Shown here one piece after another: positions 1,925 to 53,463 of a DNA stretch of 64,000 nt; positions within the stretch are counted from its first letter, which is position 1; the number at the start of each line of letters is the position of its first letter. A model generated the notes under the pieces. It had not been told where the DNA came from. It did not search any database and saw nothing but the letters and a program-made list of their open reading frames with translations. A program made the translations under genes and the position numbers. The stretch comes from Myxococcota bacterium. Its GTDB lineage: Bacteria > Myxococcota_A > SURF-8. The stretch covers positions 1,664,001-1,728,000 of the forward strand of contig OZ223209.1 in NCBI GenBank assembly GCA_965140415.1. Direction: 5' to 3'.

Positions 1925-2191
1925 ATGAATAATGTCAAAAAGATTCGGAATCGAAAGCTTATGAGCAAAGCAGAGCTGGCTCGACGTTCCGGACTTTCTG
2001 TTTTAACGATCGATCGCGTGGAGAGTGGCAAGCAGTGTCGCCTGGATACCATGCGAAAAATCCTTTTAGGGCTCGGATTAGCGCTGGAAGACAAGGATCT
2101 TGTTTTCGGACCGGATGAACCCCTGCGAACGTCCTCTCGTGGAAAACGGGATTTCGGGATGAGCGAAGCGGAATCCCGGGACGGAATATAA
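1925..2191 (+). CDS. Small XRE-family helix-turn-helix protein upstream of pilM
   Basis: MNNVKKIRNRKLMSKAELARRSGLSVLTIDRVESG is an XRE HTH pattern. ATG 1925 follows GGAGA. This position before pilM is typical of deltaproteobacterial pil operons. Confidence 0.85.
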   Translation: MNNVKKIRNRKLMSKAELARRSGLSVLTIDRVESGKQCRLDTMRKILLGLGLALEDKDLVFGPDEPLRTSSRGKRDFGMSEAESRDGI

Positions 2192-2206
2192 GAGGAAGGA
2201 CCGGCA

Positions 2207-3262: not shown

Positions 3263-3816
3263 TGATTCGGATTAACTTACTACCAGTCAAACAGGCGAAG
3301 AAGCGTGGCGTTGGTCAGCAGCAATTGATTCTGTTCGCCATCATTCTGATCGGCATCGGGTTGCTGCTCTATTCCGTCAACCAGTCGGAAGAAGCGACCG
3401 TTACGCAACTTCAGGATCGACAAAAAGACATCAAAGCCGAGATGGATCGCCTTGAAGAATTGATTGGCGACATCAACGTCATTCAGAAAAAGAAAGAAGA
3501 CCTGCGCAAGAAACTGTCGGTCATCGACTTGTTGCGTAAGGGAAAAACCGGTCCTGTGCGCATCCTGGATGAACTAAGCACCATCATTCCCAAAAAGGTG
3601 TGGCTGGTCTCTTTGGCGGAAGGAACCAATCGCCTGATGATGAAGGGATTTGCGACGGACAACAAGGAAATCGCGGTTTTCATGAAAAACCTTGAAGCTT
3701 CGCCGTTCTTTTCCGATGTTACATTGCAGACGATTATACAGGCGCCAGATAGGGAGTACGCTATTCCGGTGATGAGTTTTTCCTTAAATTGTGTCTACCA
3801 TTTACCGAAATCCTAA
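3262..3816 (+). CDS. pilN: Type IV pilus assembly protein PilN
   Basis: Diagnostic N-terminal MIRINLLP, one TM segment, coiled coil, 'P-x-x-VWL'. Confidence 0.96.
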   Translation: MIRINLLPVKQAKKRGVGQQQLILFAIILIGIGLLLYSVNQSEEATVTQLQDRQKDIKAEMDRLEELIGDINVIQKKKEDLRKKLSVIDLLRKGKTGPVRILDELSTIIPKKVWLVSLAEGTNRLMMKGFATDNKEIAVFMKNLEASPFFSDVTLQTIIQAPDREYAIPVMSFSLNCVYHLPKS

Positions 3817-3829
3817 GTAGGACAGAACA

Positions 3830-4456
3830 ATGGATGCCTTTTTCGATAAATTCGCAAAGATACCCATCTTCCAGAAAGTGCTGGGTTTCGTCCTCGTCTG
3901 TCTGTTGGTCATCGGACTATATTACTTCTTCGTCCACAGTGCGCAGAAGCAACAGCAAGAGGAAATCCGAAATAGCATCATTTCGCTGGAAGCGAGCCTT
4001 GAAGAGAAGAAGAAGATGGTTGGCGATCTTTCCCAATATAAGCGGGAAGTGGAAAAGCTGAACCAGGATCTTCAGAAAGCCTTGAAATTACTGCCTAATA
4101 GCAGTGAAATTCCCTCCTTGCTGCAAAAGGTTTCTTCGTTGGCCAAAAAAGCTGGGTTGGACATTTTGAGCTTCCAGCCAAAACCCGAAATTCCGCAGGA
4201 CTTCTATGCGCGAGTTCCGGTATCGCTGAAATTGAGCGGCAGTTACAACGAACTGACGAACTTCTTCGATGCTGTTGGCAAACTGTCACGTATCGTGAAT
4301 ATCAGCAATTTCTCTTTTGGGTCGGAAGAAGGCGGAAGGAACGCAAACAAGCAGGCGAAGAAGGTGCTTTCCGCCGAGTGCATCGCCACGACCTATCGTT
4401 TCATCCCCCCCTCTAAACCGGCGGGAACCGATGCACAAACGAAGGGGAAAAAATGA
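3830..4456 (+). CDS. pilO: Type IV pilus assembly protein PilO
   Basis: N-terminal TM, coiled coil, 'LLPNSSEIPSLL', 'G-S-Y-N-E-L-x-x-FF...KLSRIVNI'. Confidence 0.96.
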   Translation: MDAFFDKFAKIPIFQKVLGFVLVCLLVIGLYYFFVHSAQKQQQEEIRNSIISLEASLEEKKKMVGDLSQYKREVEKLNQDLQKALKLLPNSSEIPSLLQKVSSLAKKAGLDILSFQPKPEIPQDFYARVPVSLKLSGSYNELTNFFDAVGKLSRIVNISNFSFGSEEGGRNANKQAKKVLSAECIATTYRFIPPSKPAGTDAQTKGKK

Positions 4457-5115
4457 TGGCTGGGCGCTGGATTAAAAGAAAAATTCGCATTGGTAAAGCG
4501 CTGCCACTTGCCGCTGTGGTCCTGATTGTGCTTGCCATGCTGGCCGCTTGCGGCAGCGACATTACAGTTAGTAAGAGTACGAAGAAAAAAGCTCCGGAAG
4601 CGCGTAGTGCACAAGAAACTGTAGCCGCAGTTGCTCCGGCAGCGAAAGTTGAGAAGGATTACGTTTACACCAGTATCGGTAAGCGTGATCCGTTCCGATC
4701 CATCTTCGACGAAACCGGTGGTGAGGCGACGATGGATGCAGTCGAGACGATTTTGAGTCCGCTGCAGAACTACGACATCACTTCCTTTACGGTAACCGCT
4801 ATCCTTTGGGGAATTCCATCGCCTTCGGCAATGGTGGTTGCTCCGGATAGTAAGACCTATACCGTCAAACAGGGAACGCTGATTGGACGTAATTGGGGAC
4901 GAGTAGTCAAGATCAAGCGTGATGGCATCGTGGTGTTGGAACAGACGCGGATGCCGAACGGACAGAAGATCACCAACACGATCACATTGAAACTGCCGGT
5001 TAAAACCATCTCTGCAAAAGGGGTGGAATTCGGTGGGGGTTTGAATTTGGACGAAGCCCTGGAAGAAACTCAGGATAGTATTATCGAAGACCTGAGTGGC
5101 TCGAGGGGTCGATAA
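4453..5115 (+). CDS. pilP: Type IV pilus lipoprotein PilP
   Basis: Lipobox LAAC, 'KRDPFRS', 'SPLQNYDI', 'G-T-L-I-G-R-N-W-G-R-V'; ATGA overlap with pilO. Confidence 0.95.
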   Translation: MMAGRWIKRKIRIGKALPLAAVVLIVLAMLAACGSDITVSKSTKKKAPEARSAQETVAAVAPAAKVEKDYVYTSIGKRDPFRSIFDETGGEATMDAVETILSPLQNYDITSFTVTAILWGIPSPSAMVVAPDSKTYTVKQGTLIGRNWGRVVKIKRDGIVVLEQTRMPNGQKITNTITLKLPVKTISAKGVEFGGGLNLDEALEETQDSIIEDLSGSRGR

Positions 5116-5188
5116 GGTGGATGGAAAACAAACGCCAATGAAACGATTTGACATTGCCATGCAGATCCTGCCCTTTAAGGAGAGACAG

Positions 5189-41137: not shown

Positions 41138-42520
41138 ATGAGGGTGAAGTCGGTTGTAATCCTCTGGTCGCTGGTGGTGCTGCTGTTTTATGTGCAGCCA
41201 GCCCAAGCTGTTGAGGTGGAATTATGGCCGGAAACCTTTTTTCAGGTTCAGCAGTACCGCGATGTGGACCAGCTTAAAATCGACGAAACCCGGTTTACCC
41301 AGTATCTCACCTTAAACCTGTATCAGACGCTAGACCCGCAGGAATTCTACAAGCAGGCGGAGCATGCCTTTTTCTCTTCGATGCGTGTGGATGTCGACTT
41401 GGGGCGCGATCATTCGCCCGATGAGCCGAGCAATGCATTGGAAGGGCAGCGTTTCGCCCTGTTGTATGCGTATTGGGAATGGCGGCGCATCGGCGATGCG
41501 CTCGATCTGGCGCTGGGACGGCAGGTTTTAACCGACGAGTTCGGCATGGCGGCGATGGACGGGCTACGCATGACGATTCGCCGGGATTGGTATGTAGGGC
41601 TGGAACTGTATGTAGGCAGTGAAGTCAAAGGGGAGGTCATTCCCGATGCGGGTGGTTTTTCCCTTCCGAATTCAGATACTTTCGAACCCGATGGACTAAC
41701 CGATGACGACCGCTGGACCGGCTTGTTCGGAGCCGCATTGTTTCTGGATGGCTTAGAAAATACTGTGCTGCGGTTGCACTATCGGCATCGTTATTCCGGA
41801 GAAACGGACAGCATGCAGCTTGGGTTGTCTTTCCGACAGCGTATTCTGGATGTATGGGAACTGTATTCGATGGACAGTTTCGATTTGATTCAGGAACGTT
41901 TCAGCGAACTGCGCTTCGGGACGACGGTCGATTTCGACTGGGTTGGATTTTCGCTGGAACATTGGTCCGGGCGTGCGGAGTTTGATGCCGATTCGATTTT
42001 CAATTTCTTCGACGTCAATTCGGAAAAGGAAATTTCCGCCCGGTTTTACATTCGCCCCGACAGTCGTACGCATATTGGAGCAAGCTATGCACGCCTGTTT
42101 CAGGGCGGAGGCGGTATTCTGTTCGATGATTGGGGGGATGATGGCAACGCTTCGCATATGGGGAGCCTGTACGTGAACCGAATGCTGGGTGATATCGCCG
42201 ACGTGCGAGCCAATTATCGTTTCACGCGGGGATATGGAGGTGACACTCAACGTTTTTCTGTCGGCGGCGGGGTGGACCTATGGCAACGCCGCATTCGGCT
42301 TGATGGTGATTTTATGGGTAGCTTCTACAGCCGCCTGACCTATAATGACATTCTTGTGGAAAACGGGAATTCGGGTTTCAGTTGGGGATTGAGCCTGCGT
42401 TCCGAGTTTCGCATACATCCGGAAGTTACTCTGGCGTTTCGTGGAGATGGTTATTCCAACCCCATTATCGAACGGCAATTCGCCTTTTTCTTTGAACTGG
42501 ACGTGCACACATGGCAATAA
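41138..42520 (+). CDS. Putative outer-membrane beta-barrel protein
   Basis: Sec signal ending PAQA; alternating aromatic/hydrophobic strands; 'LALGRQ...MDGL'; C-terminus FAFFFELDVHTW. Confidence 0.75.
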   Translation: MRVKSVVILWSLVVLLFYVQPAQAVEVELWPETFFQVQQYRDVDQLKIDETRFTQYLTLNLYQTLDPQEFYKQAEHAFFSSMRVDVDLGRDHSPDEPSNALEGQRFALLYAYWEWRRIGDALDLALGRQVLTDEFGMAAMDGLRMTIRRDWYVGLELYVGSEVKGEVIPDAGGFSLPNSDTFEPDGLTDDDRWTGLFGAALFLDGLENTVLRLHYRHRYSGETDSMQLGLSFRQRILDVWELYSMDSFDLIQERFSELRFGTTVDFDWVGFSLEHWSGRAEFDADSIFNFFDVNSEKEISARFYIRPDSRTHIGASYARLFQGGGGILFDDWGDDGNASHMGSLYVNRMLGDIADVRANYRFTRGYGGDTQRFSVGGGVDLWQRRIRLDGDFMGSFYSRLTYNDILVENGNSGFSWGLSLRSEFRIHPEVTLAFRGDGYSNPIIERQFAFFFELDVHTWQ

Positions 42521-43668
42521 GGCAGAAAAAGCAATCCGCAGTTATTCTATGGGGCTCGATCGTTGTTCTCGTTGTTTTGGGAGCAAGTCTGGCCTGGGCG
42601 GTTCCTGAAAATCTGGTTCCCGGTTTTGAAGTCATCTATCCGGCGAATCAAAGCAAAATCAAGTTCAGTCACAAAATTCATGCCAAACACGATTGCCTGA
42701 CCTGCCATGAAAGCGTGGCGACAAGCACAAAAAGCGAGCAGCGCAATCTACCCGCCGAAACGGTGTGTGCCGGTTGCCATGCCGAGCAAACGCGCAAATT
42801 GACCAATGAAGTCGGCGATGTCGCTCGCTGCGAAATGTGTCACCGGGATTACGACCCGGCCAACCGTTCCCGACCAAGCCGCGTGACGGTTACTCCGGCC
42901 AAGTTGATCTTTTCACACCAGGCGCACCAGCAACGGTTGATTAGCTGCAAGCACTGCCATGCCGGAATCGATACGGATGCAGGGCAATCTAAACGACCGA
43001 TGCCTAACGAAGCGATGTGCCTTTCCTGTCATGAGCGAAACAAGAAGGGAAATACCTGCGGTTTTTGTCATCCGAGTCTGCCCTCCGGGCTGATTACGAC
43101 GGATTTCAATGGGTTGAAACTGGTGCCGACCAAAGGCAAACTCAATCATTATCGAAACTGGGAAGCCAATCACGCGATCGAATCGCGTATGCGACCGGAG
43201 TCCTGCCGCAGCTGCCATCAACAGCACGATTGCAATGCCTGTCACGACGGCGTCATGAGACCGATGAAGATCCATCCGGACGATTATGCTACAACCCATG
43301 CGATCGATGCCCGCAACAATCGGAACCGTTGCAACAGCTGTCATCGATATCAGAGTTTCTGTTTAGATTGTCACCAGAAAATGGGTCTGACGACCGGTGC
43401 GGAACGCAAATCGGAAAGAACCCGCATTCATCCGGAAGGCTTCGATGCCTGCATCCGAACTCCCAATCATCATTCATTCCAGGCCAAGCGTTCCTTACTG
43501 AGTTGTGTTTCCTGTCATACGGAGAAAGATTGTCTGAACTGTCATAAGAGCGGATCGGCCTGTGGTGGTGGCGTTCGAATCCACGGACATCTGAGTCCAT
43601 CCCAATTGGACCGGATGAAGGCCAAAAATCCGCGTGCTTGCAAGAAGTGTCATGATGAGTTCAAGTGA
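42511..43668 (+). CDS. Exported multiheme c-type cytochrome (13 CxxCH; c3/c7-like modules)
   Basis: Signal peptide ending LAWA. Motifs CLTCH, CAGCH, CEMCH, CKHCH, CLSCH, CGFCH, CRSCH, CNACH, CNSCH, CLDCH, CVSCH, CLNCH, CKKCH; two 'FSH-x-x-H' c7/c3-type distal ligand motifs. Confidence 0.95.
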   Translation: MAIRQKKQSAVILWGSIVVLVVLGASLAWAVPENLVPGFEVIYPANQSKIKFSHKIHAKHDCLTCHESVATSTKSEQRNLPAETVCAGCHAEQTRKLTNEVGDVARCEMCHRDYDPANRSRPSRVTVTPAKLIFSHQAHQQRLISCKHCHAGIDTDAGQSKRPMPNEAMCLSCHERNKKGNTCGFCHPSLPSGLITTDFNGLKLVPTKGKLNHYRNWEANHAIESRMRPESCRSCHQQHDCNACHDGVMRPMKIHPDDYATTHAIDARNNRNRCNSCHRYQSFCLDCHQKMGLTTGAERKSERTRIHPEGFDACIRTPNHHSFQAKRSLLSCVSCHTEKDCLNCHKSGSACGGGVRIHGHLSPSQLDRMKAKNPRACKKCHDEFK

Positions 43669-44116
43669 CCGAAATCGCCAGGGATTGTTGATACTTGTGT
43701 TGGTTGCGTTGTTTACGGGACTGTATGCGGCGGCTTGCTCGAATATCGGAGATGATCCGCTGTATCCGCAGGATACACGAGGTGGATTGGATGTGTTGGA
43801 TAGTTGTCCCTTACCCGGTGAAAGTAACGTTTCCACCGGTGCGGTGGTCAAGTTGCTGTTCAACAAAGAACTCGATCCGGCGACCGTGACAGACAATGCC
43901 ATTCTGATGGGCAGCGGGCGTTGGCATGTCAAGGGGGATTTGTACTACGATGACCGGACTGTGACGTATGTGCCGACTACGGTTTTGGATGCGAACTCGA
44001 AATACACGATCTACATTACCAGTTCGCTGCGCGATATCGATGGTTTCGCTTATACCAAAGAGCTTTCCGTCATATCCTTTCAAACGGGAAGTGAAACGGG
44101 CGTGACTTGCAGGTGA
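43652..44116 (+). CDS. Lipoprotein with a bacterial Ig-like (Big_5/SbsA-type) domain
   Basis: Lipobox AAAC; 'P..GESNVST...LLFNKELDPATV...YVPTTVLDANSKYTIYI..LRDIDG...SFQTG'. Confidence 0.85.
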   Translation: MMSSSDRNRQGLLILVLVALFTGLYAAACSNIGDDPLYPQDTRGGLDVLDSCPLPGESNVSTGAVVKLLFNKELDPATVTDNAILMGSGRWHVKGDLYYDDRTVTYVPTTVLDANSKYTIYITSSLRDIDGFAYTKELSVISFQTGSETGVTCR

Positions 44117-44261
44117 GAAACTTTGGAGATTATTCAGTTCTGTTTTCATTGGATTTATTCTGCAAGATCAAGTACGATAACACGCAACAAGTGACTTGTA
44201 TGTAAAACATTCCCAACGCCGTAATGACTAAAACCGATGTTTGTTTCATTGAGGGTGAGCC

Positions 44262-44861
44262 GTGCCAGCAAAGAAGACCAGATCGACTCGAACGAACATG
44301 AAGAACGAAGGGGGTGAAACCCCAGCCGGAAACGGAAATATTATCGAATCGGCAGTTGGCAAACAGGATAAAGAAGCCACCGATTCGAAAATTCTGATCC
44401 TCGATCCGAGCACCAATCGGTTGATCAAGCAATCCAATCTGGATGCGGACTGGGTATTGCGTCATGGCTTTTTTCCTTTGGAAATCGCCCGTTTTTTGTC
44501 CATGAACCTTCGCGACAACAATATCCCCTGTGAAATCGGATATGATCTGGAACTGGCCGAAAGCGAAAGCGAAACGGCAATGGCGCTGAGAAACTCATTC
44601 CGAGACAGAAAACCTTTTTATTACGTAGGGTTTCCGGGTGCCTACTATCCGAAGGCAAAAGATATATTGGAGAAGACCAGCTATCCGCTAAAAGATGATG
44701 GTGGGGTAGCCAGGCGTACCTACGAAGCGAAGATGTCGGCGATAAACAAAGCCAACGAGGCTATTCACAAGCGCCAGTTGTTCATATACTTGATGGTGGC
44801 AATGATTGGCATGCTTGGTTTATATGGCTTTTTCATGCTTGCCAAGATTCTTATACCCTAA
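44262..44861 (+). CDS. Hypothetical protein with a C-terminal membrane anchor
   Basis: 199-aa ORF with a GAGGG-like RBS and a hydrophobic C-terminus; no family recognised; start could be ATG 44298. Confidence 0.6.
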   Translation: MPAKKTRSTRTNMKNEGGETPAGNGNIIESAVGKQDKEATDSKILILDPSTNRLIKQSNLDADWVLRHGFFPLEIARFLSMNLRDNNIPCEIGYDLELAESESETAMALRNSFRDRKPFYYVGFPGAYYPKAKDILEKTSYPLKDDGGVARRTYEAKMSAINKANEAIHKRQLFIYLMVAMIGMLGLYGFFMLAKILIP

Positions 44862-44908
44862 GACCGATCGTTTCTTATCACCTTTCCACTTGGGAAATCC
44901 GAAAGCTG

Positions 44909-44938
44909 TTGACATTCAATCCGTACGATTGTTATAAG
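44909..44938 (+). promoter_or_regulatory. sigma70-like promoter upstream of the AMMECR1-pair operon
   Basis: TTGACA (44909-44914), 18-nt spacer, TATAAG (44933-44938). Confidence 0.5.
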
Positions 44939-45133
44939 GTTAACGCTGAGCATAGAAGTCATCTCGTAATTGGGTGACGGTTTCTTGTCATGCCGGATTT
45001 CGTCCGGCATCTCTATTATTTTACACGAGAATCCGTTTCGCATGTGAAATGACATCTTTCTTGATTCCGAACAAAACAGGGTGGCATTGAATAGTTAGAA
45101 GGACACGAAACCAGAGTTTAATAAGGAGGTTCC

Positions 45134-47368
45134 ATGTTCCGAAGGTTAGTACAATTTACAGTTATCGTCGCGTTGATCACGACTTTCATACTAGCTTGCG
45201 AAAAAGCGCAGCAAGCCGGATCGAATTTCGAGACAGAATTAAAAACGCAGTTGGAGCAAGCCGGAGGTGATTTCATCTTAGCACCGGATGCAATCAAAGG
45301 TGACATGAAGGCCATTGCCGCAAGTGTAAAAACACCAATAGAGGCCCAACCGGTTTGGAATGCCTTGAAATCGGATTCGGAAGCGGATCTGGTAAAACAG
45401 ATGCTGGCAGCCAAAATCGGACTGATCGTCTTACCGACGGATGTTGGTGAAGACGTTGATCGCAGCGGAAGCGTAGCAGAAGCGATTTTGCACAGTGGCG
45501 ATTTGCAGAACCTGAGCTATGTCCATGTTGATACAGACAAAATTGCGGTGGCTTTGGCTCCATTGGCGTTAAGAATGAGCGAAGCTCAATATCCGATGGT
45601 TTACAGCTATGTCAGGGCGGCTTTAACCGGGCAGACACTCCCCGCTCTTCCGCCGGGATTCGACCAGAAGCTAAAGAATTCTGCGGTGTTGGATCTTCGT
45701 TTCACGGATTCTGAAGGGTATAACAAAACACTCGGATTGATTCGCGGCGTGGGTGACAGCTACAAGGCGGCATTGGACAAGGCGGTCAAGATGGCGCAAA
45801 CGCGCTACCAGAAGCGTGGTGCGGGAAAGATGAATGCCGAACCGCTGGAAATGTTCGTCAAGGGAGCGATCATCACCCTGAATTTCCATCATGCACCGGC
45901 GACTTTGGCGGTAGATGCCAATCAGTTGTCGCGTTATGTGTCGGTTGGCTTGGATGGTCTGGTGCTGCATCTTCCGGCGGCGAAACCGGGAGAACAGGGA
46001 AAAACGGTTAAAATCTCACCGGACAAATCGAAGATCTGGCGTGAGAGCAATTTGAATAAGCTCATGGAAATCGCTTGTAAAAAGTACAAGTTGGACAAAG
46101 ATGCCTGGAAACAGGATGGCGTTCGTTACGAGAAATTCCGCACACTGGACCTGACCGAACGTACGGCAGGTGGAGAAGTGATTCGTTTGTTCCGAGGATT
46201 TGAATGGGTGAACCCGGCCAAATTGGACAAGAAAGAAATCATGGCGGGGTTCATGGATGGTGCCGAGTGGCTGCTTTCGATCAACATACCGGAATCTGGG
46301 ATGTTCGAATACAGTTACTACGCCACTCGCGATCAATACGCCAAAAATCAATACAACCTGATTCGTCACCATCTGGCTACCTTGACTCTGATTCAAGCCT
46401 ATGAATTAACCAAGGAACGTCGTTTTCTGGATGGTGCCAGGCGGGCAATCGAATGGAACTTGAAACTGGTGGAATGGGAAGGCAAGATTGCAATGTTCCG
46501 TCATCCTCGTTTCGATGGTCGCTACAAACTGGGTGGTGCTGGAACGTTATTGCAGGCCATGTGCGAATATTTCCGGTTCGAGCGCGTACCGGAATGGGAA
46601 AAGACCATGAAAGGTCTGGCCGAATTCATCATGGTGCTACAGGAGGAAAACGGTCATTACAAGAGCTTCTATGTGAAAAAAGGGCAGAAACCCTTTGACC
46701 GCGAAGTGACCATCTATCCCGGTGAAGCTAACCTGGCGTTGGTGCGGCTATACCATATCTTCAAAGATCAACGCTATATCGACACCGTGCAGAAAGCCTT
46801 CGAGTATTACTCGAACTGGTTCAACAAAAAGAAGAGCAACCGCAGTAAGGGCGACTTAGGCCCCTTCGTACCCTGGGATATGTCGGCGATGATGGAATTC
46901 TGGGAAGTTGTAAAGAAAGATGAAGTGGCCGATTATGCCTTTGCCATGGCGGATTGGATCATCGACAACTGGTATGTGTTCGGACACAAGCAGACATACT
47001 GGAAAGATTACGTAGGCGGATTCCATGGTTCCAAACGGAAATGGGATATGCCCATCTGGAACAGCGGCGTTTATGGCGAGGGTGTGGCGTCGGTGTATCA
47101 CCTGGCCAAGATGCGCGGAGATGAAAAGCGTATGGCGAAATATCGCAAAGCGGCATTCTTGACAGTGCGCTTTGTACGCCAGAGTCAATATCGCCAGGGT
47201 TCGGTTTACTATCTGCCGAATCCGAGCAAGGCGGTTGGCTGTATTCCGGACAATTTCCATAAAGACGAGTGCCGTTTGGACTTTGCCTATCACTGCCTGA
47301 CGGTGAATTATCGTTTATTGAGATTCTTCCAGCCGGATGACTGGGAAGCGGTCAAGAAGATCCGTTAG
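45134..47368 (+). CDS. Lipoprotein: divergent AMMECR1-like domain plus C-terminal alpha/alpha-toroid (six-hairpin-glycosidase-like) domain
   Basis: AAGGAGG RBS; lipobox ILAC; AMMECR1-like 'VGLDGLVL...ACKKYKLDKDAWK' without an RGC motif; toroid motifs 'GMFEYSYY...YNLIRH', 'KLGGAG', 'YPGEANLALVRLY'. Confidence 0.7.
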   Translation: MFRRLVQFTVIVALITTFILACEKAQQAGSNFETELKTQLEQAGGDFILAPDAIKGDMKAIAASVKTPIEAQPVWNALKSDSEADLVKQMLAAKIGLIVLPTDVGEDVDRSGSVAEAILHSGDLQNLSYVHVDTDKIAVALAPLALRMSEAQYPMVYSYVRAALTGQTLPALPPGFDQKLKNSAVLDLRFTDSEGYNKTLGLIRGVGDSYKAALDKAVKMAQTRYQKRGAGKMNAEPLEMFVKGAIITLNFHHAPATLAVDANQLSRYVSVGLDGLVLHLPAAKPGEQGKTVKISPDKSKIWRESNLNKLMEIACKKYKLDKDAWKQDGVRYEKFRTLDLTERTAGGEVIRLFRGFEWVNPAKLDKKEIMAGFMDGAEWLLSINIPESGMFEYSYYATRDQYAKNQYNLIRHHLATLTLIQAYELTKERRFLDGARRAIEWNLKLVEWEGKIAMFRHPRFDGRYKLGGAGTLLQAMCEYFRFERVPEWEKTMKGLAEFIMVLQEENGHYKSFYVKKGQKPFDREVTIYPGEANLALVRLYHIFKDQRYIDTVQKAFEYYSNWFNKKKSNRSKGDLGPFVPWDMSAMMEFWEVVKKDEVADYAFAMADWIIDNWYVFGHKQTYWKDYVGGFHGSKRKWDMPIWNSGVYGEGVASVYHLAKMRGDEKRMAKYRKAAFLTVRFVRQSQYRQGSVYYLPNPSKAVGCIPDNFHKDECRLDFAYHCLTVNYRLLRFFQPDDWEAVKKIR

Positions 47369-47417
47369 AAGAGTTTCTTGCAAACGTAAACGTTAGAACA
47401 TCAAAGGGAGTCTATCC

Positions 47418-49244
47418 ATGAAAATATCCAAGGGAATGCTCGTGGTTGCCTTGTTCGCTCTGTTGTCGCTGCTAATGTTGTGGAGTTGCGATAAACAGTC
47501 GGAACCCGCACAAAAGCAGGTGAAGGCCGAGAAAGCGGATAAAAAGTCGGCGAAACGACCTGCAAAGAAATCCAATGAAGTGCAGATCACGCTTACCGAG
47601 GCGGAAAAGAACGAACTGATTCTGTTCGCCCGCAAGGCGTTTGATACTTATGTCAAAGACCAGGAGCGTCTGGATGCCGATGAGCTACCGGAAGGATTGA
47701 GAGACCGCAAAGTCAATCGTGTATTCGCTACGATTTACAAAGAGGGCGAATGGCGGGGATGTGTCAGCTCGATGGGGAAAAATATCGGGACGGCAGTTGT
47801 GGGTGCGATCATCAACACGGTGCGCGATCGACGTTTCAAGAATCCGTTGCCGGAAGAACTGGATAAATTCCGGGTGGAATTGTCGTTCTTGCAGCCGACC
47901 GAGCGCATCGATACCAAAGATCCGGTCGAGATTGAAAAAGTACTGGAACCGGGCGTGGATGGCATCATCGTAACTGGTGCATCGGGAAAACGTGCCTTCT
48001 TCTTGCCTTATGTGTTTGTCAAGAAGCAGCGCACCACTGTTACCTGGCTGGAACGCTTGAGCCGCAAGGCCGGTATGGATAAAGATGCCTGGAAGCTGCC
48101 CGATACCGTGATCGAGCGCTATGGGACCATCAATTTTATCGAAGAGAAGCCATACGGAAAATCGGTGGATCTCTACCGCTACAAGGTCGAGCTGGACGAA
48201 TTGCCTGAGCAGGTGTTGTCGAAGTCGATCGATTCGGCGTTGAAATGGTTTGAAGCGCACAAGGTCGTACATGCCAAACGTTTTGCGCCAGGATATGACA
48301 ACAACCATCATCCGTTGAAGAAGTCCAATGATGGGCACCAATTGTTTGCGCTTTCCGCGTTGAATCGGGCTGCGGAGTTGGACAAGAATGTCGAACTGGG
48401 CAAGCTGGTTCGTTGGGGATACCAGGGAATCAAAGATCTCGTGGTGGATGATCCGGAAAAAGGCTTGCTGTTCAAAACCGAGGGCGTCTCCGATCTGGAA
48501 GGTCGGTTGTTGCTTGGCGATTTACTTATTTCCGGTGGTGCGGTGAAGGGGCGCAAGGAACTCGTTAACAAGTTGGCGGCGAAGTTGCGCACCTTGAAGG
48601 CCGCGGATATTCCAGAACAGGGACGATTCGTTCAGGATTTACGCAATTTCACCGTGTATGTGGTTGCCGGACTGGCACAACTGACCAAGGATGCCCAGGA
48701 TCGCAAGCAGGTTCTGGCTCTGGTTGATTCATGCTGGAATGCGGATGGTCCCTGGGCTTTGACGGCACTGGCAAAGGCGGCGGCGGTACTAAGCGATCCG
48801 GCCATGTTGGTGCAGCTTGGCGAATCCGTGCAGAAGACGATGGGGCATCAGTACCGCAACCAAACCGCTCCCTATGCCGACTTTGTGGGTGCGTTCGACG
48901 ATCAGAAAGTGCCGACAACCGTATTTGTGGCGGCGCGTTTGCGCAGTCTGGCAGAGGCTTACGGTGCGTTGAAGGATCTCAAACCGGAATTGGCGAAACA
49001 GATCGCCGAGGCCATCATGCTCTCCTCCCGGTGGTTGTTCGAACAGCAGTTTACCAAGGTCAGCGCTTTCTACTTCGAGAACTGGGCGCAGTTACAGGGT
49101 GCGTTTAAGCGCGATATTTTGCTGAATCAATCAACTCTGATCGACACCGCTTCGGCGTTATTGGCGCTACTGGAAGTACGTCGCCAGATGGGCGATGAGT
49201 TTGAAACCTTGCGGGCAGCGATGCAGGATCAGCTCAGGAAGTAA
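47418..49244 (+). CDS. Lipoprotein: canonical AMMECR1 domain plus degenerate helical C-terminal domain
   Basis: Lipobox LWSC; 'LILFARKAF', 'VFATIYKEGEWRGCV', 'DRRF', 'ELSFL', 'PGVDGII', 'AFFLPYV', 'LSRKAGMDKDAW' follow the AMMECR1 pattern. Confidence 0.8.
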   Translation: MKISKGMLVVALFALLSLLMLWSCDKQSEPAQKQVKAEKADKKSAKRPAKKSNEVQITLTEAEKNELILFARKAFDTYVKDQERLDADELPEGLRDRKVNRVFATIYKEGEWRGCVSSMGKNIGTAVVGAIINTVRDRRFKNPLPEELDKFRVELSFLQPTERIDTKDPVEIEKVLEPGVDGIIVTGASGKRAFFLPYVFVKKQRTTVTWLERLSRKAGMDKDAWKLPDTVIERYGTINFIEEKPYGKSVDLYRYKVELDELPEQVLSKSIDSALKWFEAHKVVHAKRFAPGYDNNHHPLKKSNDGHQLFALSALNRAAELDKNVELGKLVRWGYQGIKDLVVDDPEKGLLFKTEGVSDLEGRLLLGDLLISGGAVKGRKELVNKLAAKLRTLKAADIPEQGRFVQDLRNFTVYVVAGLAQLTKDAQDRKQVLALVDSCWNADGPWALTALAKAAAVLSDPAMLVQLGESVQKTMGHQYRNQTAPYADFVGAFDDQKVPTTVFVAARLRSLAEAYGALKDLKPELAKQIAEAIMLSSRWLFEQQFTKVSAFYFENWAQLQGAFKRDILLNQSTLIDTASALLALLEVRRQMGDEFETLRAAMQDQLRK

Positions 49245-50587
49245 TGATGGATACACAAGCTGAACGCATTCCGATTGCCAGTATCCGGGATTTGGAGGAG
49301 GAAGGTGCGACTTGTGTAGTTGCCGGTCGTCTGGTGCAGTTGTCCCCGGCGACATTGACCCTGGAAGACCAGACCGACCGCCGTACCTTTGGGTTTCCAA
49401 ATAACAATCCGGATCTGACGCGGGTGCGACTGGGAGACATTCTGGAAGTAACGCTGATGCTGCGGCAGAAAGCCTGGCGCGTCATGAGTCACCGGGTGTT
49501 GACTCCTTGTATGCTTGATCAGGAAAAGATGCGCCAGTGGATGGCGCGTTGGATGGAAACCGGCAATCGCAAGCGGCGCAACTTGGTGTTGCGTGATGCC
49601 GTAATGCGCTCCATGAGAGACTATTTTCTAAGCGACAACTTTTTGGAAGTGGCGACGCCAACCTTGGTAGCCTGCCCAGGCATGGAGCCGAATCTTACCG
49701 GTTTTTCCTCACAGTGGGTTGGGCCGTTCGGCGGTTGGGAACAGAATTACTACCTGCCTACCTCGCCGGAGTTCCACATGAAAAAGTTGCTAGTACTCGG
49801 TTACGAGCGGATCTTCGAATTCGCACGCTGTTTCCGCAATCGTGAGTTTTCTGCGCATCACCAACCCGAATTCACCATGTTGGAGTGGTACCGGGCATAT
49901 TCCGATTATGAAACGATCATGACCGATACCGAGCAGTTGGTCAGCAAAGCGGCCCAGGATGCGTTGGGTACCATGACCATACAGTATCAGGGGCGCACGA
50001 TCGATTTGACGCCACCCTGGCCGCGTGTGTCGGTGCGAGACCTGTTTTTGCAGCGTTTGAAAATCGATTTGTCCGAAACGAGAAATGCGCCGGCACTGGC
50101 GCGAGCCGCCATCGAGCGTGGATTCTCCTATGTCAGCCCCAACGAAACCTTCGAGGTGGTGTTTTTCAAGCTGTTCCTAACGGAAATCGAGGAACGCCTG
50201 GGCTGGGATCGTCCGGTGATTTTGCGGGATTATCCCATGGAAATGAGTGCCTTGGCGCGACGTAAACCCAAAGATCAGCGCTACTGTGAGCGATTCGAAG
50301 TGTATATAGCCGGAATCGAACTGGCCAATGCCTTTGGTGAGTTGACCAATGCTCCCGAGCAGAAGCGTCGCTTTATGGATGACATGGCCGAGAGCGACAA
50401 GGAGCGAGGCTTCCACTACGAACCGGACGAGGAATTTCTCGAAGCACTGAGCTTTGGTATGCCTCCTTCGGCGGGAATCGCGCTGGGTGTGGATCGTGTT
50501 GCCATGCTGCTTGCCAATGAAACCTCTCTCTTCCCGGTAACGGCATTCCCTCATCGTTCGCCGGTGGGACAGAAAGAAGAGAACTGA
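49244..50587 (+). CDS. epmA: EF-P lysine aminoacylase EpmA (GenX/PoxA) with an N-terminal extension
   Basis: 'YLPTSPEFHMKKLL', 'CFRNRE...HQPEFTMLEWYR', 'ERFEVYIAGIELANAFGELT', 'MPPSAGIALGVDR'. Confidence 0.93.
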   Translation: MMDTQAERIPIASIRDLEEEGATCVVAGRLVQLSPATLTLEDQTDRRTFGFPNNNPDLTRVRLGDILEVTLMLRQKAWRVMSHRVLTPCMLDQEKMRQWMARWMETGNRKRRNLVLRDAVMRSMRDYFLSDNFLEVATPTLVACPGMEPNLTGFSSQWVGPFGGWEQNYYLPTSPEFHMKKLLVLGYERIFEFARCFRNREFSAHHQPEFTMLEWYRAYSDYETIMTDTEQLVSKAAQDALGTMTIQYQGRTIDLTPPWPRVSVRDLFLQRLKIDLSETRNAPALARAAIERGFSYVSPNETFEVVFFKLFLTEIEERLGWDRPVILRDYPMEMSALARRKPKDQRYCERFEVYIAGIELANAFGELTNAPEQKRRFMDDMAESDKERGFHYEPDEEFLEALSFGMPPSAGIALGVDRVAMLLANETSLFPVTAFPHRSPVGQKEEN

Positions 50588-51651
50588 TGCCCTGGTCGCA
50601 ATTCGGCAGTCAACCGCGAGTGGTTTCCATCTTGCGTCGGATCGTCGAATCCGGAAGGATTGCGCATGCTTTCCTGTTCTGCGGTCCTGATGGCGTTGGT
50701 AAACGTGAGGCGGCGATTCTTTTCGCCCAGGCGTTGAATTGTGACCGCTCCGATAGCGATCCCTGCGGTATTTGTTCGAACTGTGATCTGTTGGATCGCA
50801 GCCGAGATCCCAAGGAGCAGGTGCACCCCGACCTGATGCACCTCGTACCCGGCGGTTGGATCGGCAAGGATGGTCGCAAGCAGAGCAGCCATACCATTTT
50901 GGTCGATGCGATCCGCGATTTGAGATCGAGTTTGTACGCCGCACCACTAAAGGCAAATTACCGCCTGGTATTGATTCACGAAGCGGACACCATGCAAATT
51001 GCGGCGCAGAACGCATTTCTGAAAACACTGGAAGAGCCGGTCGATCGGATTCGGACGATCTTCCTTCTGCTCAGTTCGCGTCCCAATGCCTTATTGCCGA
51101 CCATTCGTTCCCGCTGCCAGATCGTTCGTTTCGGTGCGGTGAGCGCCGGGAATATTCGTCGTCGCCTGGAGATCCACCATCAGTTGGACGAGGAGCAGGC
51201 GGAGTTATTGGCTTCGCTGTCGGATGGAAATTTGCAGGTCGCCGAGCAGATGGCGGAAGCTGGTGAGGATGGGAGCTGGAATACGAACCGCTTGCAGTGG
51301 TTGGATTTCTGGCATGAGATCGCCATAGGAAAGTCCGGTGAAACCGGTGAGTTCGTAGACCAATCCGCACGAACGAGAGATCGATTGTCTGAATTGCTGG
51401 CTTTATTGATCACCTGGCACCGGGATCTGCTGATTATTGCGTCCGATGCGTCGGAAGAGCGGGTTGTGAATCGCGATCGCTTACAGCAGTTGCAGCAGGA
51501 AGCCCGACTCGTTCCTGCCGGTCGAATCGCCTACCGCATGGAACGATTGATCGATATCCGACGGGATCTGGAATCCATATATATCCGAGGGGATGTGGCA
51601 ATGAGTAGCGTATTGATGGAGGTTGCGAGTTCCCGCGCGTATTCGGCATAA
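50587..51651 (+). CDS. holB: DNA polymerase III subunit delta-prime
   Basis: 'AHAFLFCGPDGVGK', Zn cluster 'LNC...PCGICSNC', 'HPDL', 'AQNAFLKTLEEP', 'LLPTIRSRCQ'. Confidence 0.96.
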   Translation: MPWSQFGSQPRVVSILRRIVESGRIAHAFLFCGPDGVGKREAAILFAQALNCDRSDSDPCGICSNCDLLDRSRDPKEQVHPDLMHLVPGGWIGKDGRKQSSHTILVDAIRDLRSSLYAAPLKANYRLVLIHEADTMQIAAQNAFLKTLEEPVDRIRTIFLLLSSRPNALLPTIRSRCQIVRFGAVSAGNIRRRLEIHHQLDEEQAELLASLSDGNLQVAEQMAEAGEDGSWNTNRLQWLDFWHEIAIGKSGETGEFVDQSARTRDRLSELLALLITWHRDLLIIASDASEERVVNRDRLQQLQQEARLVPAGRIAYRMERLIDIRRDLESIYIRGDVAMSSVLMEVASSRAYSA

Positions 51652-51759
51652 CTTAAAATCCGGTATACGTGGAAAATCATTGGGATTATTACAAAAGATT
51701 GTCTATAATACTCCCCCTTATTCATCACCGTGGCATGCCACGACTGGAGAACGATCACT

Positions 51760-53463
51760 GTGCAAACAGATGAAAACGATAAAAGCGTTGAAACAACGGA
51801 AGAGGCTTCCGAATTGCAATCCGCTAATGAGGAATCAAAGCCGGAGCCGGTAGAGCCTGCGAGCGAGAGCGAATCGGATTCCAAGCCGGTTGAAAACGTT
51901 TCGGATGCTTCGTCCACCGAAAAAGCGGATGATACCGTACCCGAACGGAACAACGAGGATTTGAAATCGGAGCAGGTGGAGGGCGAGGCGGAATCCTCCG
52001 AACCGCCTAAAAAAGTTGAGACCGTTCGAATCGCCGGTGTGCGTTTTCGCAGTGCTGGAAAGATGGAGATGTTCCAGTGTCAGAACCTGGAAGTTCACGT
52101 TGGTGACCGGGTGGTTGTTGAAGTGGAACGGGGCTTGGAAATCGGTAAGGTCGTGTTGGTTGATGAAAATGCGAAGCCCGGTAAGCAAAAGCTGCATCGG
52201 GTTGTTCGCTTGATGGATGAACGCGACAAGATGATCCTGAAAGAGAACGAAGAACGCAATCGCCAAGCTTATCATAGCTGTCTCAATAGCATCGCGAAGT
52301 TGAATTTGCCAATGAAGCTGATCGAGGTCAGCTACCAACATTCAGCCAATAAAGCGGTTTTCTATTTTTCTTCGGAAGGTCGGGTTGATTTCCGCGAATT
52401 GGTCCGATTGCTGGCGCAGGAGCTACGCATCCGTGTTGAAATGCGTCAGGTCGGCATTCGGGATGAGGCTAAACTGGTCGGCGGTATGGGCCCATGCGGG
52501 CAGCCTGTTTGTTGCGCGACCCATCTAAGTGATTTCACTCCTGTTTCGATTCGCATGGCCAAGGAACAGAATCTGACCTTGAATCCGGAAAAGGTTTCCG
52601 GTTTGTGCGGCAGGTTGATGTGTTGTTTGGGATATGAATCCGCAACCTATAAAGATCTTCAAAAAGGTCTGCCAAAAATCGGCAAAAAAGCGGACACCTG
52701 GAAAGGTCGTGGGCGCGTACTGGAAATCAACATTTTCAGCCGCCAGATGCGATTGGAATTGCCGGGCCGTGAATACATCTCGATCGATCTGGACGACTAT
52801 AAGTCTTACAAGCAAGACCCCGAAGGCTTCGGTGCGCTTATGATGAAGAAGGAAGAGGAAGAGCGCACCAAAGCGTTGCGGCGTGATGTGGAAAAGGTTA
52901 CTTCCGTGATGGAAGGCAGCCGGGAAACGGAGTCTCGCAAGGCCAGACGCCAATCCAACTCGGAATCCAATGGAAAGAGACCGGATAAACCTGCCGAAAA
53001 GCCGGATCGACGACCGACAAATCCTAAGCAGGGGGGCGCTCAGGGAAATCAATCCCAAGCGAACAAGGATGGTGGTGATCCCAATAAGCCGCGACCTTCA
53101 CGTCGTCGGCGAGGTCGAGGCGGTAGAGGCCGAGGAGGACAGGGTGGCCAGGGTGGCCAGGGTGGCCAGGGAGGACCGCAAGGAGAGCCTCGCCGAGAAG
53201 GAAAGCCTTCTCCCGATGGAAAACCGAAGGCTCCGCAAGGTGGCGGTAGAAGCTCTGGACCCAAAGGTGGTGGGGCTGAAGGTGGTAAGCCCGGTCAAGA
53301 AGGCGCTCCCAAACGCAAATCTCGTTCTCGGCGCAGGCGCAGACCATCCGGTCCGCGTGGCGGCGGTTCCGGCAATCCGAATTCCGGAAATTCTTCACCG
53401 CGTTCCGGGGGACCGAAGCCGGGTGGAGGCAAAGGGTCTGGTAGTGGTAGCGGTAATAGCTAG
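51760..53463 (+). CDS. PSP1-domain protein (YaaT/RicT family) with an acidic N-terminal and a Gly/Arg-rich C-terminal disordered extension
   Basis: 'GVRFRSAGK', 'RVDFRELVR', 'RVEMRQVGIRDEAK..GG.GPCGQPVCC', 'MAKEQNL...SGLCGRLMCCL.YE'; standard holB-PSP1-metG-tatD order. Confidence 0.93.
   Translation: MQTDENDKSVETTEEASELQSANEESKPEPVEPASESESDSKPVENVSDASSTEKADDTVPERNNEDLKSEQVEGEAESSEPPKKVETVRIAGVRFRSAGKMEMFQCQNLEVHVGDRVVVEVERGLEIGKVVLVDENAKPGKQKLHRVVRLMDERDKMILKENEERNRQAYHSCLNSIAKLNLPMKLIEVSYQHSANKAVFYFSSEGRVDFRELVRLLAQELRIRVEMRQVGIRDEAKLVGGMGPCGQPVCCATHLSDFTPVSIRMAKEQNLTLNPEKVSGLCGRLMCCLGYESATYKDLQKGLPKIGKKADTWKGRGRVLEINIFSRQMRLELPGREYISIDLDDYKSYKQDPEGFGALMMKKEEEERTKALRRDVEKVTSVMEGSRETESRKARRQSNSESNGKRPDKPAEKPDRRPTNPKQGGAQGNQSQANKDGGDPNKPRPSRRRRGRGGRGRGGQGGQGGQGGQGGPQGEPRREGKPSPDGKPKAPQGGGRSSGPKGGGAEGGKPGQEGAPKRKSRSRRRRRPSGPRGGGSGNPNSGNSSPRSGGPKPGGGKGSGSGSGNS
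53140..53171 (+). repeat. In-frame 9-nt tandem repeat (CAGGGTGGC x3 plus partial) encoding QGG units
   Basis: Directly visible in the 3' part of the PSP1 gene. Confidence 0.85.

Follow-up and report, generated by a model that had tools for sequence, protein, structure and literature searches.

Two conserved residue sets are divided between adjacent genes in one bacterial class, as judged from their sequences. The genes, here called gene 1 and gene 2, are those of an uncultured, myxobacterium-like bacterium and lie in the window, by which we mean the whole 64,000-nt stretch analysed (positions 1,664,001 to 1,728,000 of contig OZ223209.1, assembly GCA_965140415.1; GTDB lineage Bacteria; Myxococcota_A; SURF-8). 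The complementary degeneration claimed in the original prediction was real and class-wide: the AMMECR1 cysteine is found only in gene 2, and the toroid residue set only in gene 1. Each gene keeps the site residues of a different domain, so the two together may accomplish what most other microbes achieve with one protein. We consider the chances evenly balanced that the pair forms one functional envelope module on a common substrate, in which gene 2 would depend on gene 1 and not the reverse.

Locus and gene neighbourhood

The locus contains the following features.

44990..45010, + strand: terminator-like hairpin with a T-rich tail, which would end the upstream unit (9 pairs, 5 of them G-C; a consensus match only)
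45123..45129, + strand: ribosome-binding site AAGGAGG, 4 nt 5' of the gene 1 ATG, as read from the sequence
45134..47368, + strand: gene 1, a predicted lipoprotein of 744 aa whose AMMECR1-like domain is dead and whose toroid is intact
47369..47417, + strand: spacer of 49 nt, with the purine-rich stretch AAAGGGAG ahead of the gene 2 ATG
47418..49244, + strand: gene 2, a predicted lipoprotein of 608 aa whose AMMECR1 domain is intact and whose toroid is degenerate
49244..50587, + strand: epmA, EF-P lysine aminoacylase (NCBIfam TIGR00462, 325.8 bits against a cut-off of 286.9)
50587..51651, + strand: holB, DNA polymerase III delta'

The reading frames of both genes matched the predicted positions exactly. 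The hairpin lies in the 272-nt gap between an ORF end at 44861 and gene 1. In the spacer between the two genes no strong terminator was predicted, and the one site listed, a weak 6-pair one at 47290-47306, falls within gene 1. The predicted overlap of the gene 2 stop with the epmA start amounts to one shared base: the last A of the TAA stop is the first base of the epmA ATG. The epmA stop and the holB start overlap likewise. The pair stands in a tight block with epmA-holB. As the prediction also had it, neither Memo nor radical-SAM genes were present among the eight ORFs scanned (41138-51651). The host genome has its own Memo-AMMECR1 fusion, about 1.1 Mb from the gene pair.

Export signals and domain composition

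The following features were assigned within gene 1.

45134..45199, + strand: signal peptide and lipobox FILAC with Cys22, invariant in 12/12
45200..45565, + strand: N-terminal extension, aa 23-144, without a counterpart in gene 2 or the single-chain family
45566..46198, + strand: degenerate AMMECR1-like domain, aa 145-355, which aligns with the AMMECR1 half of the single-chain family
45743..45751, + strand: R204-G205-V206 in place of the AMMECR1 RGC, with loss of the cysteine (hhalign pairs 'IRGVG' with 'lRgCq')
46199..47365, + strand: (alpha/alpha)6-toroid domain, aa 356-744, in which the conserved polar set is complete

Those of gene 2 were as follows.

47418..47489, + strand: signal peptide and lipobox MLWSC with Cys24, invariant in 18/18
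47580..48182, + strand: AMMECR1 domain, aa 55-255 (PF01871, 85.8 bits; PDB 1zq7, E 7.8e-10)
47754..47762, + strand: R113-G114-C115, signature motif of AMMECR1 that includes the predicted catalytic cysteine, reading WRGCVS and invariant in 18/18
47826..47837, + strand: D137-R138-R139-F140, the AMMECR1 DxR-aromatic motif, with D137, R139 and F140 invariant
48183..49241, + strand: toroid-like domain, aa 256-608, which has lost most of the family-wide polar residues

Lipoproteins were recognised by a positively charged n-region, a hydrophobic stretch and a lipobox ending in Cys. The lipoboxes ILAC of gene 1 and LWSC of gene 2 were present as predicted, and a PROSITE-like lipobox pattern was conserved in 13/13 proteins of the gene-1 family and 19/20 of the gene-2 family, the single miss reading LMPAC. 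Both proteins, which carry this pattern, are predicted signal peptidase II substrates. The statement that AMMECR1 domains are typically cytoplasmic was not supported in that form. A hydrophobic N-terminus was found in 68 of 91 single-chain relatives, and the Memo-AMMECR1 fusion of the same genome has a lipobox-like leader; exported AMMECR1 forms are common.

In gene 1, the hhalign match to the single-chain family begins only at aa 140. Pfam gave no match for the N-terminal extension. Gene-1-like proteins of other Myxococcota share it, their matches starting at HMM position ~62-78, and its mean identity across nine matched genomes is 29%. The AMMECR1-like domain had no PF01871 match at E 0.01, and the gene 1 family profile matched PDB 1wsc at no better than E 5e-4, in the latter half of the AMMECR1 domain (positions 244-349). 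The predicted loss of RGC was borne out: the motif reads RGV206, the column held Cys in 0/7 scored orthologues, and neither Cys nor Ser occurred in 12 aligned rows. R204 is invariant. Of the DxR-aromatic motif R224-Y225 is kept, with a gap at the Asp position. The toroid polar set comprises Y393, Y395, R411, Q503, E531, W581, D625, E649, Q685, R714, D716 and H720. The motifs YNLIRH (407-412), KLGG (465-468) and YPGEA (528-532) occur in gene 1 and are missing from gene 2, as claimed.

The AMMECR1 domain of gene 2 is a clear one. PF01871 covers aa 70-237 at 85.8 bits against a gathering cut-off of 25 (E 3.2e-24), and the PDB matches were 1zq7, 1vaj and 1wsc. Passages of PMC2034487 describe RGChG, with its conserved cysteine, and the DxR-aromatic motif as predicted AMMECR1 active-site motifs. 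Gene 2 has indeed retained RGC at 113-115, and also DRRF at 137-140. Its toroid-like domain could be aligned along the full length of the single-chain toroid and retains D488, R538 and Q544 of the family-wide residues.

Homology to the single-chain family

The single-chain family consists of exported proteins of about 600 aa, each with an AMMECR1 domain and an (alpha/alpha)6 toroid. It is widespread and unnamed, and its database label is 'AMMECR1 domain-containing protein'. Two-domain paralogy had been claimed, and the alignment of both genes with 25 single-chain relatives ran from end to end: over aa 140-738 in gene 1 (hhalign E 3.9e-74, 554 columns) and over aa 56-591 in gene 2 (E 6.2e-73, 530 columns). 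The two family profiles also matched each other over 424 columns (243-722 with 149-581) at an hhalign probability of 99.2 and E 1e-19. The shared local motifs noticed earlier are real, with DKDAWK at 321-326 of gene 1 and 221-226 of gene 2, within a BLASTP match of E 2e-4. By these alignments, the two genes are paralogues over both domains, far beyond chance.

Sixty-four full-length family members were drawn from 77 loci across phyla. At least five of the six toroid residues (R, E, E, R, D, H) were present in 63/64 full-length members and in 40/48 representatives, and 32/48 single-chain relatives had both the Cys and at least five of the six. Cys loss is common across the family: the RGC-column Cys was absent in 43/64 full-length members, although 10 read RCC and 4 read RCS. 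AMMECR1 and a carbohydrate-enzyme-like toroid are joined in this large family, most of whose members are exported; the toroid set is near-universal in it, and the cysteine is often lost.

Complementary loss of the two residue sets

The six key toroid residues (R411, E531, E649, R714, D716 and H720) were all kept in 7/7 gene 1 orthologues, none of which had the cysteine. Gene 2 orthologues showed the reverse: Cys was present in 10/10, and at least five of the six toroid residues in 0/10. The protein in the window has 0/6, and 10/10 orthologues have 0-2 of 6. The same division was seen in mean identities over nine matched genomes, which were 42% for the AMMECR1-like domain vs 63% for the toroid in gene 1, and 61% for the AMMECR1 domain vs 35% for the toroid in gene 2. 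A dead toroid was found in 0/64 full-length members (77 loci) and in 4/48 representatives, all four of which are sisters of gene 2. Because a dead toroid is so rare, gene 2 is the odd member of the family. Within the class, its dead toroid always adjoins a live one. In five other tandem pairs from other phyla, reciprocal loss occurred in 0/5.

Distribution and phylogeny

The pair recurred, with both genes in 10/10 genomes of the class and the complementary loss kept in the orthologues. These 10 genomes belong to four families and are related to one another, so the co-occurrence represents few independent events. The order of gene 1 and gene 2 was kept in 6/6 related loci, with epmA next in the five whose contig was long enough. 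The spacers between the two genes were short in all six, as inferred from match coordinates, and the genes upstream of the pair were not conserved. Full-length gene 2 was found only in the class, and in 0/291 other Myxococcota genomes. Outside the class, gene-1-like Cys-less proteins had no adjacent gene 2 in 12/12 loci examined, and 34 of 66 genomes with such proteins had no AMMECR1 domain at all (E 1e-5, tallied by hand). Therefore, the toroid works elsewhere without an AMMECR1 thiol. In one metagenomic protein, P0028, gene 1 and gene 2 are fused by a Pro-rich linker; the protein lacks a second signal peptide and has retained RGC as well as the toroid motifs. It is the sole fusion and comes from a single 4188-nt contig, whose end shortens the protein. 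No longer gene 1-gene 2 fusions were found, which is weak evidence.

In the maximum-likelihood tree, gene 1 grouped with Myxococcota-wide Cys-less gene-1-like proteins (SH-aLRT 94), and gene 2 grouped with four other Cys-only proteins, P0037 and P0045-P0047 (SH-aLRT 99). A sister placement of gene 1 and gene 2 of the class was not rejected by the AU test (p 0.147). The extension and the Cys loss are shared with wider Myxococcota relatives, so the gene 1 state predates the class. Together with the tree groupings, this makes the split between gene 1 and gene 2 look older than the class. Of the predicted duplication followed by subfunctionalisation, the paralogy and the complementary loss stood; a split at the level of this lineage was not favoured by the tree, in which the two are non-sisters, and the AU test leaves sisters unrejected.

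Proposed module and alternative explanations

We propose that both proteins are lipid-anchored, extracytoplasmic members of one old family of AMMECR1 plus six-hairpin toroid proteins, in which a single chain bears both residue sets in many other lineages. Gene 1 would supply the toroid site (the six key residues and others), and gene 2 the AMMECR1 thiol site (C115 with D137 and R139). The folded but degenerate domain of each is probably a scaffold or helps to bind substrate. Most likely the two share one envelope substrate, with gene 2 depending on gene 1. The solitary gene-1-like proteins, the common Cys loss, the five tandem pairs that lack reciprocal loss, the kinship of the 10 genomes and the occurrence of just one, truncated fusion weigh against this reading. 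The conservation of the residues in both sites suggests that they are catalytic, and the two proteins may bind each other, the fusion P0028 being the one indirect sign of it. The putative substrate is an envelope glycan or wall polymer, as suggested by weak similarities and by gene neighbours in other phyla. A stricter form, which we consider unlikely, is an obligate heteromer in which the gene 2 thiol and the gene 1 toroid pocket, joined by the dead domains, act on such a glycan or polymer. If it were true, it would give AMMECR1 its first substrate class and first partner domain, and at least the exported AMMECR1 proteins would not be RNA-modifying enzymes. The obligate heterodimer as originally stated was not supported, since gene-1-like proteins stand without an adjacent gene 2 in 12/12 loci and occur in AMMECR1-free genomes; therefore, dependence is at most one-way.

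The same solitary proteins (12/12 outside loci; 34/66 genomes) agree with the possibility that the two are independent enzymes on a common substrate that form no complex, gene 1 being self-sufficient and gene 2 an accessory with a polymer-binding toroid, and that adjacency means co-regulation only. The D488, R538 and Q544 retained in gene 2 fit kept ligand binding, and each protein has its own predicted lipid anchor. This explanation is possible but somewhat doubtful, given the natural fusion P0028 and the strict adjacency although upstream synteny is lost. P0028 also argues against simple inheritance of synteny, in which proteins with diverged roles and no functional link would merely share a conserved block that also includes epmA and holB. 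That block does hold housekeeping genes without an evident envelope link, and the class is small and its genomes related, but the residue loss is complementary rather than random and the spacers are short in all six loci. We regard mere inheritance as very improbable.

Tandem duplication within the lineage, followed by reciprocal loss into an obligate heterodimer of which neither subunit works alone, would account for the tandem arrangement and the complementary residues. The AU test allows it (p 0.147), tandem duplicates arise repeatedly elsewhere in the family (5/77 loci), and at L029 a fully degenerate copy stands beside an intact one. The tree places each gene with other relatives (SH-aLRT 99 and 94), the extension and Cys loss of gene 1 predate the class, and full-length gene 2 is found in none of the 291 other Myxococcota genomes; all three speak against this explanation, which we consider quite improbable. 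The natural split is a clean genetic handle, since either site can be removed or expressed alone to learn its role and whether the two have to act jointly.

Comparison with known systems

AMMECR1 is conserved from archaea to humans and, to our knowledge, is a family without a known reaction. Passages of PMC2034487 and PMC4075521 describe it as uncharacterised, with RNA modification as its predicted role. Like the members of known structure (PF01871; PH0010, 1vaj; MM0484, 1zq7; ST0229, 1wsc), gene 2 has RGC and the DxR-aromatic motif. Unlike them, it is a predicted exported lipoprotein fused to a toroid, and gene 1 has only a remnant of the fold, with RGV for RGC. Gene 2 also differs from AmmeMemoRadiSam system protein A (TIGR04335) in its lack of Memo and radical-SAM neighbours, and its score of 90.1 bits is below the curated cut-off of 99. 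The pair resembles the single-chain family in its end-to-end homology, N-terminal export or anchor signals and, in gene 1, the toroid set. It differs in carrying the two residue sets on two polypeptides, in the additional 120-aa N-terminal extension of gene 1, and in the gene 2 toroid without the residue set, which is rare in that family (0/64).

Enzyme-pseudoenzyme paralogue pairs exist, for example, trypanosomatid AdoMetDC with its prozyme. There, too, a paralogue without site residues is linked to a live one, whereas here both partners combine a live domain with a dead one, and the dead domain differs between them. The pair makes a neat example of paralogues that are enzyme in one half and pseudoenzyme in the other.

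The likeness to six-hairpin (alpha/alpha)6 carbohydrate-active enzymes consists of marginal profile scores. The gene 1 toroid weakly matched profiles of D-glucuronyl C5-epimerase (6hzz, E 0.002) and PL35 (E 0.03), and the single-chain family marginally matched cellobiose 2-epimerase (5zhb, E 1e-4) and GH127 (4qjy, E 0.002). We take these matches as a pointer to the type of reaction rather than as a sign of membership. Pfam gave only weak toroid matches on gene 1: C5-epim_C (PF06662) scored 24.1 bits over the whole protein against a cut-off of 23.3, with no single stretch above the cut-off. Precomputed Pfam annotation lists the same domain for 9 of 13 gene 1 relatives.

The gene pair and its flanking genes

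Gene 1 of the window encodes a putative lipoprotein with a degenerate AMMECR1-like domain and a conserved (alpha/alpha)6-toroid. Its neighbour, gene 2, is in the converse state. The features of the pair were as follows.

44990-45010: terminator-like hairpin in the 272-nt gap upstream of gene 1
4 nt 5' of the gene 1 ATG: AAGGAGG site
45134-47368, + strand: gene 1, open reading frame of 744 aa
47418-49244, + strand: gene 2, open reading frame of 608 aa

The two genes were separated by a 49-nt spacer. The overlap of the gene 2 stop with the epmA start, seen in the original prediction, was found again, the TAA and the ATG having one base in common, and the stop of epmA overlapped the start of holB. 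The epmA product scored 325.8 bits with TIGR00462, above the curated cut-off of 286.9. The holB candidate downstream of it scored 173 bits with TIGR00678, slightly below the cut-off of 180.6, and 150.3 bits with Pfam DNA_pol3_delta2 (cut-off 27). Judged from the sequence, this layout fits a single transcription unit of gene 1, gene 2, epmA and holB. A functional tie of the pair to epmA or holB was rejected, because it had no rationale other than operon packing. An association with the multihaem cytochrome encoded upstream was likewise rejected, because the cytochrome was not kept in related loci.

Both N-termini carried a basic n-region and a hydrophobic stretch followed by a lipobox (FILAC in gene 1, MLWSC in gene 2). 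A PROSITE-like lipobox pattern matched 13/13 proteins of the gene 1 family and 19/20 of the gene 2 family, the sole miss being LMPAC, and the lipobox Cys was invariant in the alignments of both families. The description of the pair as adjacent genes with lipoboxes was confirmed, and both products are predicted lipoproteins.

Upstream, the region 41138-44116 encodes a 460-aa signal-peptide protein without a Pfam match, an overlapping 385-aa multihaem cytochrome c (Cytochrome_C7 and c3 matches) and a 160-aa Big_5 lipoprotein-like ORF. The EpmA (genX) model covered only aa 116-435 of the window EpmA (49244-50587, 447 aa), leaving roughly 100 aa as an N-terminal extension, and a lysine-tRNA ligase model (PRK12445) extended back to aa 73. 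After holB, 51730-53463 encodes a 577-aa protein with a PSP1 domain and a long low-complexity tail rich in Gly, Ser, Pro and Arg, and a sigma-70-like promoter match lies ahead of it at 51680-51709.

Homology of the two proteins

Earlier papers describe AMMECR1 as an uncharacterised enzyme with a predicted role in RNA modification and an association with Memo and radical SAM genes (PMC2034487, PMC4075521, PMC7159879). For the predicted active site, Balaji and Aravind give the motifs RGChG and DxR-aromatic (PMC2034487). In gene 2, aa 70-237 form an AMMECR1 domain (Pfam E = 3.2e-24), and phmmer matched all three solved archaeal AMMECR1 proteins in the PDB. Its motifs, WRGCVS and DRRF, were both invariant in 18/18 orthologues. 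Gene 1 had no AMMECR1 match in Pfam and no phmmer match in the PDB, and its Pfam toroid matches were marginal (C5-epim_C at 24.1 bits, GH127 and Pec_lyase).

BLASTP between the two proteins found the DKDAWK region alone (E = 2e-4). When the two family profiles were compared with hhalign, 424 columns were matched, from the second half of AMMECR1 through the end of the toroid (probability 99.2, E = 1e-19). The fusion protein P0028 had been removed from the gene 1 profile because it dominated the comparison, leaving 12 of 13 sequences. The homology was bridged by a large family of single-chain proteins of about 600 aa, mostly exported, with AMMECR1 and toroid domains, to which each protein aligned. 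When the gene 2 alignment was used in an exhaustive profile search, 6079 proteins were returned at E <= 1e-3 and 70 at E <= 1e-30. About two-thirds of the best 150 matches were about 550-700 aa long and covered most of the profile past the leader; PF01871 was found in 19/20 scanned matches, 7/20 additionally having weak six-hairpin toroid matches. In hhalign against an alignment of 25 single-chain members, gene 1 matched over aa 140-738 (E = 3.9e-74) and gene 2 over aa 56-591 (E = 6.2e-73). The IRGVG of gene 1 stood opposite lRgCq, with R-G kept and Val206 at the Cys position. Gene 1 aa 23-144 form an additional N-terminal extension with no counterpart in this alignment. These matches indicate that the two proteins are paralogous across both domains, in agreement with the shared architecture that had been read from local motifs.

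Complementary loss of conserved residues

The residue alignment comprised 78 sequences: 7 of 11 gene 1 orthologues, 10 of 20 gene 2 orthologues, 13 gene-1-like ORFs from other genomes and 48 single-chain relatives. The latter were the first 48 of 88 relatives, with 540-700 aa; three Memo-AMMECR1 fusions were dropped, and two fragments were outside the length range. The columns scored were those conserved within the single-chain group, namely the Cys of the AMMECR1 motif RGC and six polar toroid residues (R411, E531, E649, R714, D716 and H720 in gene 1 numbering).

Table. Conserved residues in the four groups of the alignment
Group; n; Cys at RGC; at least 5/6 toroid residues
Single-chain relatives; 48; 36; 40
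Gene 1 orthologues; 7; 0; 7 (all 6/6)
Gene-1-like ORFs, other genomes; 13; 0; 13 (all 6/6)
Gene 2 orthologues; 10; 10; 0 (0-2 of 6)

Both sets were present in 32 of the 48 single-chain relatives, the Cys only in 4, the toroid set only in 8 and neither in 4. The window gene 2 had 0/6 toroid residues and retained the family-wide D488, R538 and Q544. Per-domain conservation paralleled the residue loss. In the nine genomes with both orthologues, which were matched by equal length of their contigs, the mean identity of gene 1 to the window protein was 42% in the AMMECR1-like part and 63% in the toroid; for gene 2, it was 61% in AMMECR1 and 35% in the toroid. The reciprocal degeneration proposed from the two window proteins therefore extends to their orthologues. 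From their conservation, we infer that the AMMECR1 and toroid residues are catalytic.

Distribution and synteny in Myxococcota

Word-indexed searches gave 18 gene 2 clusters and 13 gene 1 clusters, with the window protein counted in each; few matches were named, as Myxococcales or Myxococcota MAG proteins. Gene 1 was followed by gene 2 in 6/6 related genome loci, then by epmA in all five loci reaching so far and by holB in all four reaching further. A search of these six loci with four upstream window genes gave one match, to ORF 44262-44861, in one locus only. In the class of the window (10 genomes, 4 families), gene 1 and a full-length gene 2 match were each found in 10/10 genomes, one gene 2 match being interrupted by contig ends; since these genomes are kin, the counts represent few independent events.

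Among the 291 genomes of other Myxococcota, 66 had a gene-1-like match and none had a full-length gene 2 match. No gene 2-like ORF occurred within the flanks (about 3-4.5 kb where the contig permits) of 12 gene-1-like loci outside the class, and the neighbour genes of nine gene-1-like loci in other Myxococcota showed no recurrent family. The original prediction had called for a survey of whether the pair recurs; it did within the class and did not in the 291 other Myxococcota genomes. PF01871 was present in 149/301 sampled Myxococcota genomes and in 0/14 gene-1-like ORFs scanned. By a hand tally of two result tables, no AMMECR1 domain was present at E 1e-5 in 34 of the 66 genomes that carry a gene-1-like protein. 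This indicates that the Cys-less gene-1-like proteins work without an AMMECR1 partner.

One class genome carries a third, unlinked family member (L025, G004:C1:5045000-5054500, ORF 3207-5519, + strand), a 771-aa open frame with no Cys and 6/6 toroid residues, placed away from gene 1 in the tree. In a fragmented class MAG (L008 630-2775, also G008:C285), gene 1 lies in two abutting pieces (aa 3-495 and 515-740) as a result of a frameshift or of an assembly error.

The single-chain family across phyla

With six single-chain members as queries, one genome per species was scanned; 254 relative-encoding stretches were found, and 78 loci were kept. They belonged to Patescibacteria, DPANN and Thermoplasmatota archaea, Planctomycetota, Omnitrophota, Kiritimatiellales, Elusimicrobiales, Desulfobacterota, Alphaproteobacteria and others. 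The 64 full-length ORFs (77 loci) had at least 5/6 toroid residues in 63 cases and Cys at the RGC column in 21, with RCC in 10 more and RCS in 4; the Cys-only state was found in 0/64. Thus, the toroid set is near-universal, many members do without the thiol, and the gene 2 type of dead toroid is a rare state. Two full-length tandem copies occurred in five loci, three of them in Peribacteria, with reciprocal loss in 0/5. In the tandem pair of L029, one copy was degenerate in both domains and the other was intact.

Evolutionary history and functional interpretation

A quick maximum-likelihood tree (IQ-TREE, LG+G4) was computed on 462 alignment columns in the shared region; both the quick procedure and the single-matrix model call for caution. 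Gene 2 was grouped with four Cys-only single-chain proteins (P0037, P0045-P0047; SH-aLRT 99), for which searches of genomes and metagenome contigs gave no match. Gene 1 fell within a Myxococcota-wide gene-1-like clade (94), across a 99-supported branch from gene 2. Like the members of that clade, it has the N-terminal extension (matched there from HMM positions of about 62-78) and lacks the Cys. These results suggest that the gene 1 state predates the class and that the pair did not arise by recent tandem duplication. A tree uniting the class gene 1 and gene 2 was not rejected by an AU test (delta lnL 46, p = 0.147), so the two may still be sisters. The original prediction of a duplication within the lineage, subfunctionalisation and an obligate heterodimer fits the complementary residues and this p value; the separation of the genes in the tree and the apparent age of the gene 1 state speak against it, and we consider it quite unlikely.

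Both proteins are most likely lipid-anchored outside the cytoplasmic membrane, as judged from their N-termini. Gene 1 would provide the core toroid site of the family. Gene 2 would provide the AMMECR1 thiol site; its toroid would be incapable of the toroid reaction but may still bind substrate. Together they would supply what 32/48 relatives carry in a single chain. We believe that gene 2 is the dependent partner, since hardly any other family member has a dead toroid, in the class that of gene 2 is always beside a live toroid, and P0028 fuses gene 1 to gene 2. In this metagenomic protein, a Pro-rich linker joins the two and a second signal peptide is missing; the fusion was seen on one short contig. 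Longer fused forms of gene 2 were not found, which is weak evidence. That the pair forms a complementary functional module is about evenly balanced in our judgement. The two proteins could also act independently on a shared substrate: gene-1-like proteins appear to work without an AMMECR1 partner, and the fusion and the strict adjacency of the two genes speak against it, and we consider it rather unlikely. Mere synteny would suit the kinship of the class genomes and the operon packing; given the same fusion and the complementary residue losses, we regard it as very unlikely. The complementary module is thus the reading that we prefer.

Resemblances and genomic neighbours

By sequence profile, the nearest solved toroids to gene 1 were D-glucuronyl C5-epimerase (E = 0.002) and PL35 (E = 0.03), and those to the single-chain family were cellobiose 2-epimerase (E = 1e-4) and GH127 (E = 0.002); language-model look-alikes agreed. 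These resemblances are leads towards glycan chemistry, not proof.

The family neighbours are weak hints to function. In Patescibacteria and one Kiritimatiellales genome they included an alpha/beta hydrolase (9 loci), Mur ligase domains (9), a DegT-type aminotransferase (7) and the FemAB family (7). Loci with such neighbours include L036, L038, L046, L052, L053, L062, L065 and others. In 24 Planctomycetota loci (mostly Phycisphaerae; L051-L105), the gene directly 3' of the AMMECR1-toroid gene encodes a conserved protein of about 700 aa that is hydrophobic, for example:

L076 7896-10325, + strand: hydrophobic protein of about 700 aa

All 12 of the 12 scanned matched the LIC_10190 membrane-protein family below the cut-off, and PMT was matched in 1/12. 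It is probably a membrane protein and may be a lineage-specific partner of the AMMECR1-toroid protein.

No paper on exported AMMECR1-toroid proteins or a split pair of this kind turned up in a full-text literature search. Burroughs et al. 2019 (J Biol Chem) reportedly surveyed Memo-AMMECR1 contexts, which may bear on novelty. The window genome itself encodes a 595-aa fusion of Memo (aa 118-388) and AMMECR1 (aa 421-586) at L001 (G000:C1:611939-615436, ORF 1474-3261, - strand), with a hydrophobic leader that ends in a lipobox-like FCFAC. Because of this leader, the canonical AMMECR1 system of this genome also looks exported. A 488-aa hydrophobic protein, probably a membrane protein and without a Pfam match, comes after the fusion.

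At L081 5725-7533 and L095 5860-7686, the family gene lies in three and two consecutive open frames, respectively, with single stops between them; this could reflect a pseudogene, a sequencing error or another genetic code. P0038 (1133 aa) has DUF6895 ahead of AMMECR1 and the toroid, and in P0079 (1414 aa) the AMMECR1-toroid module is N-terminal.
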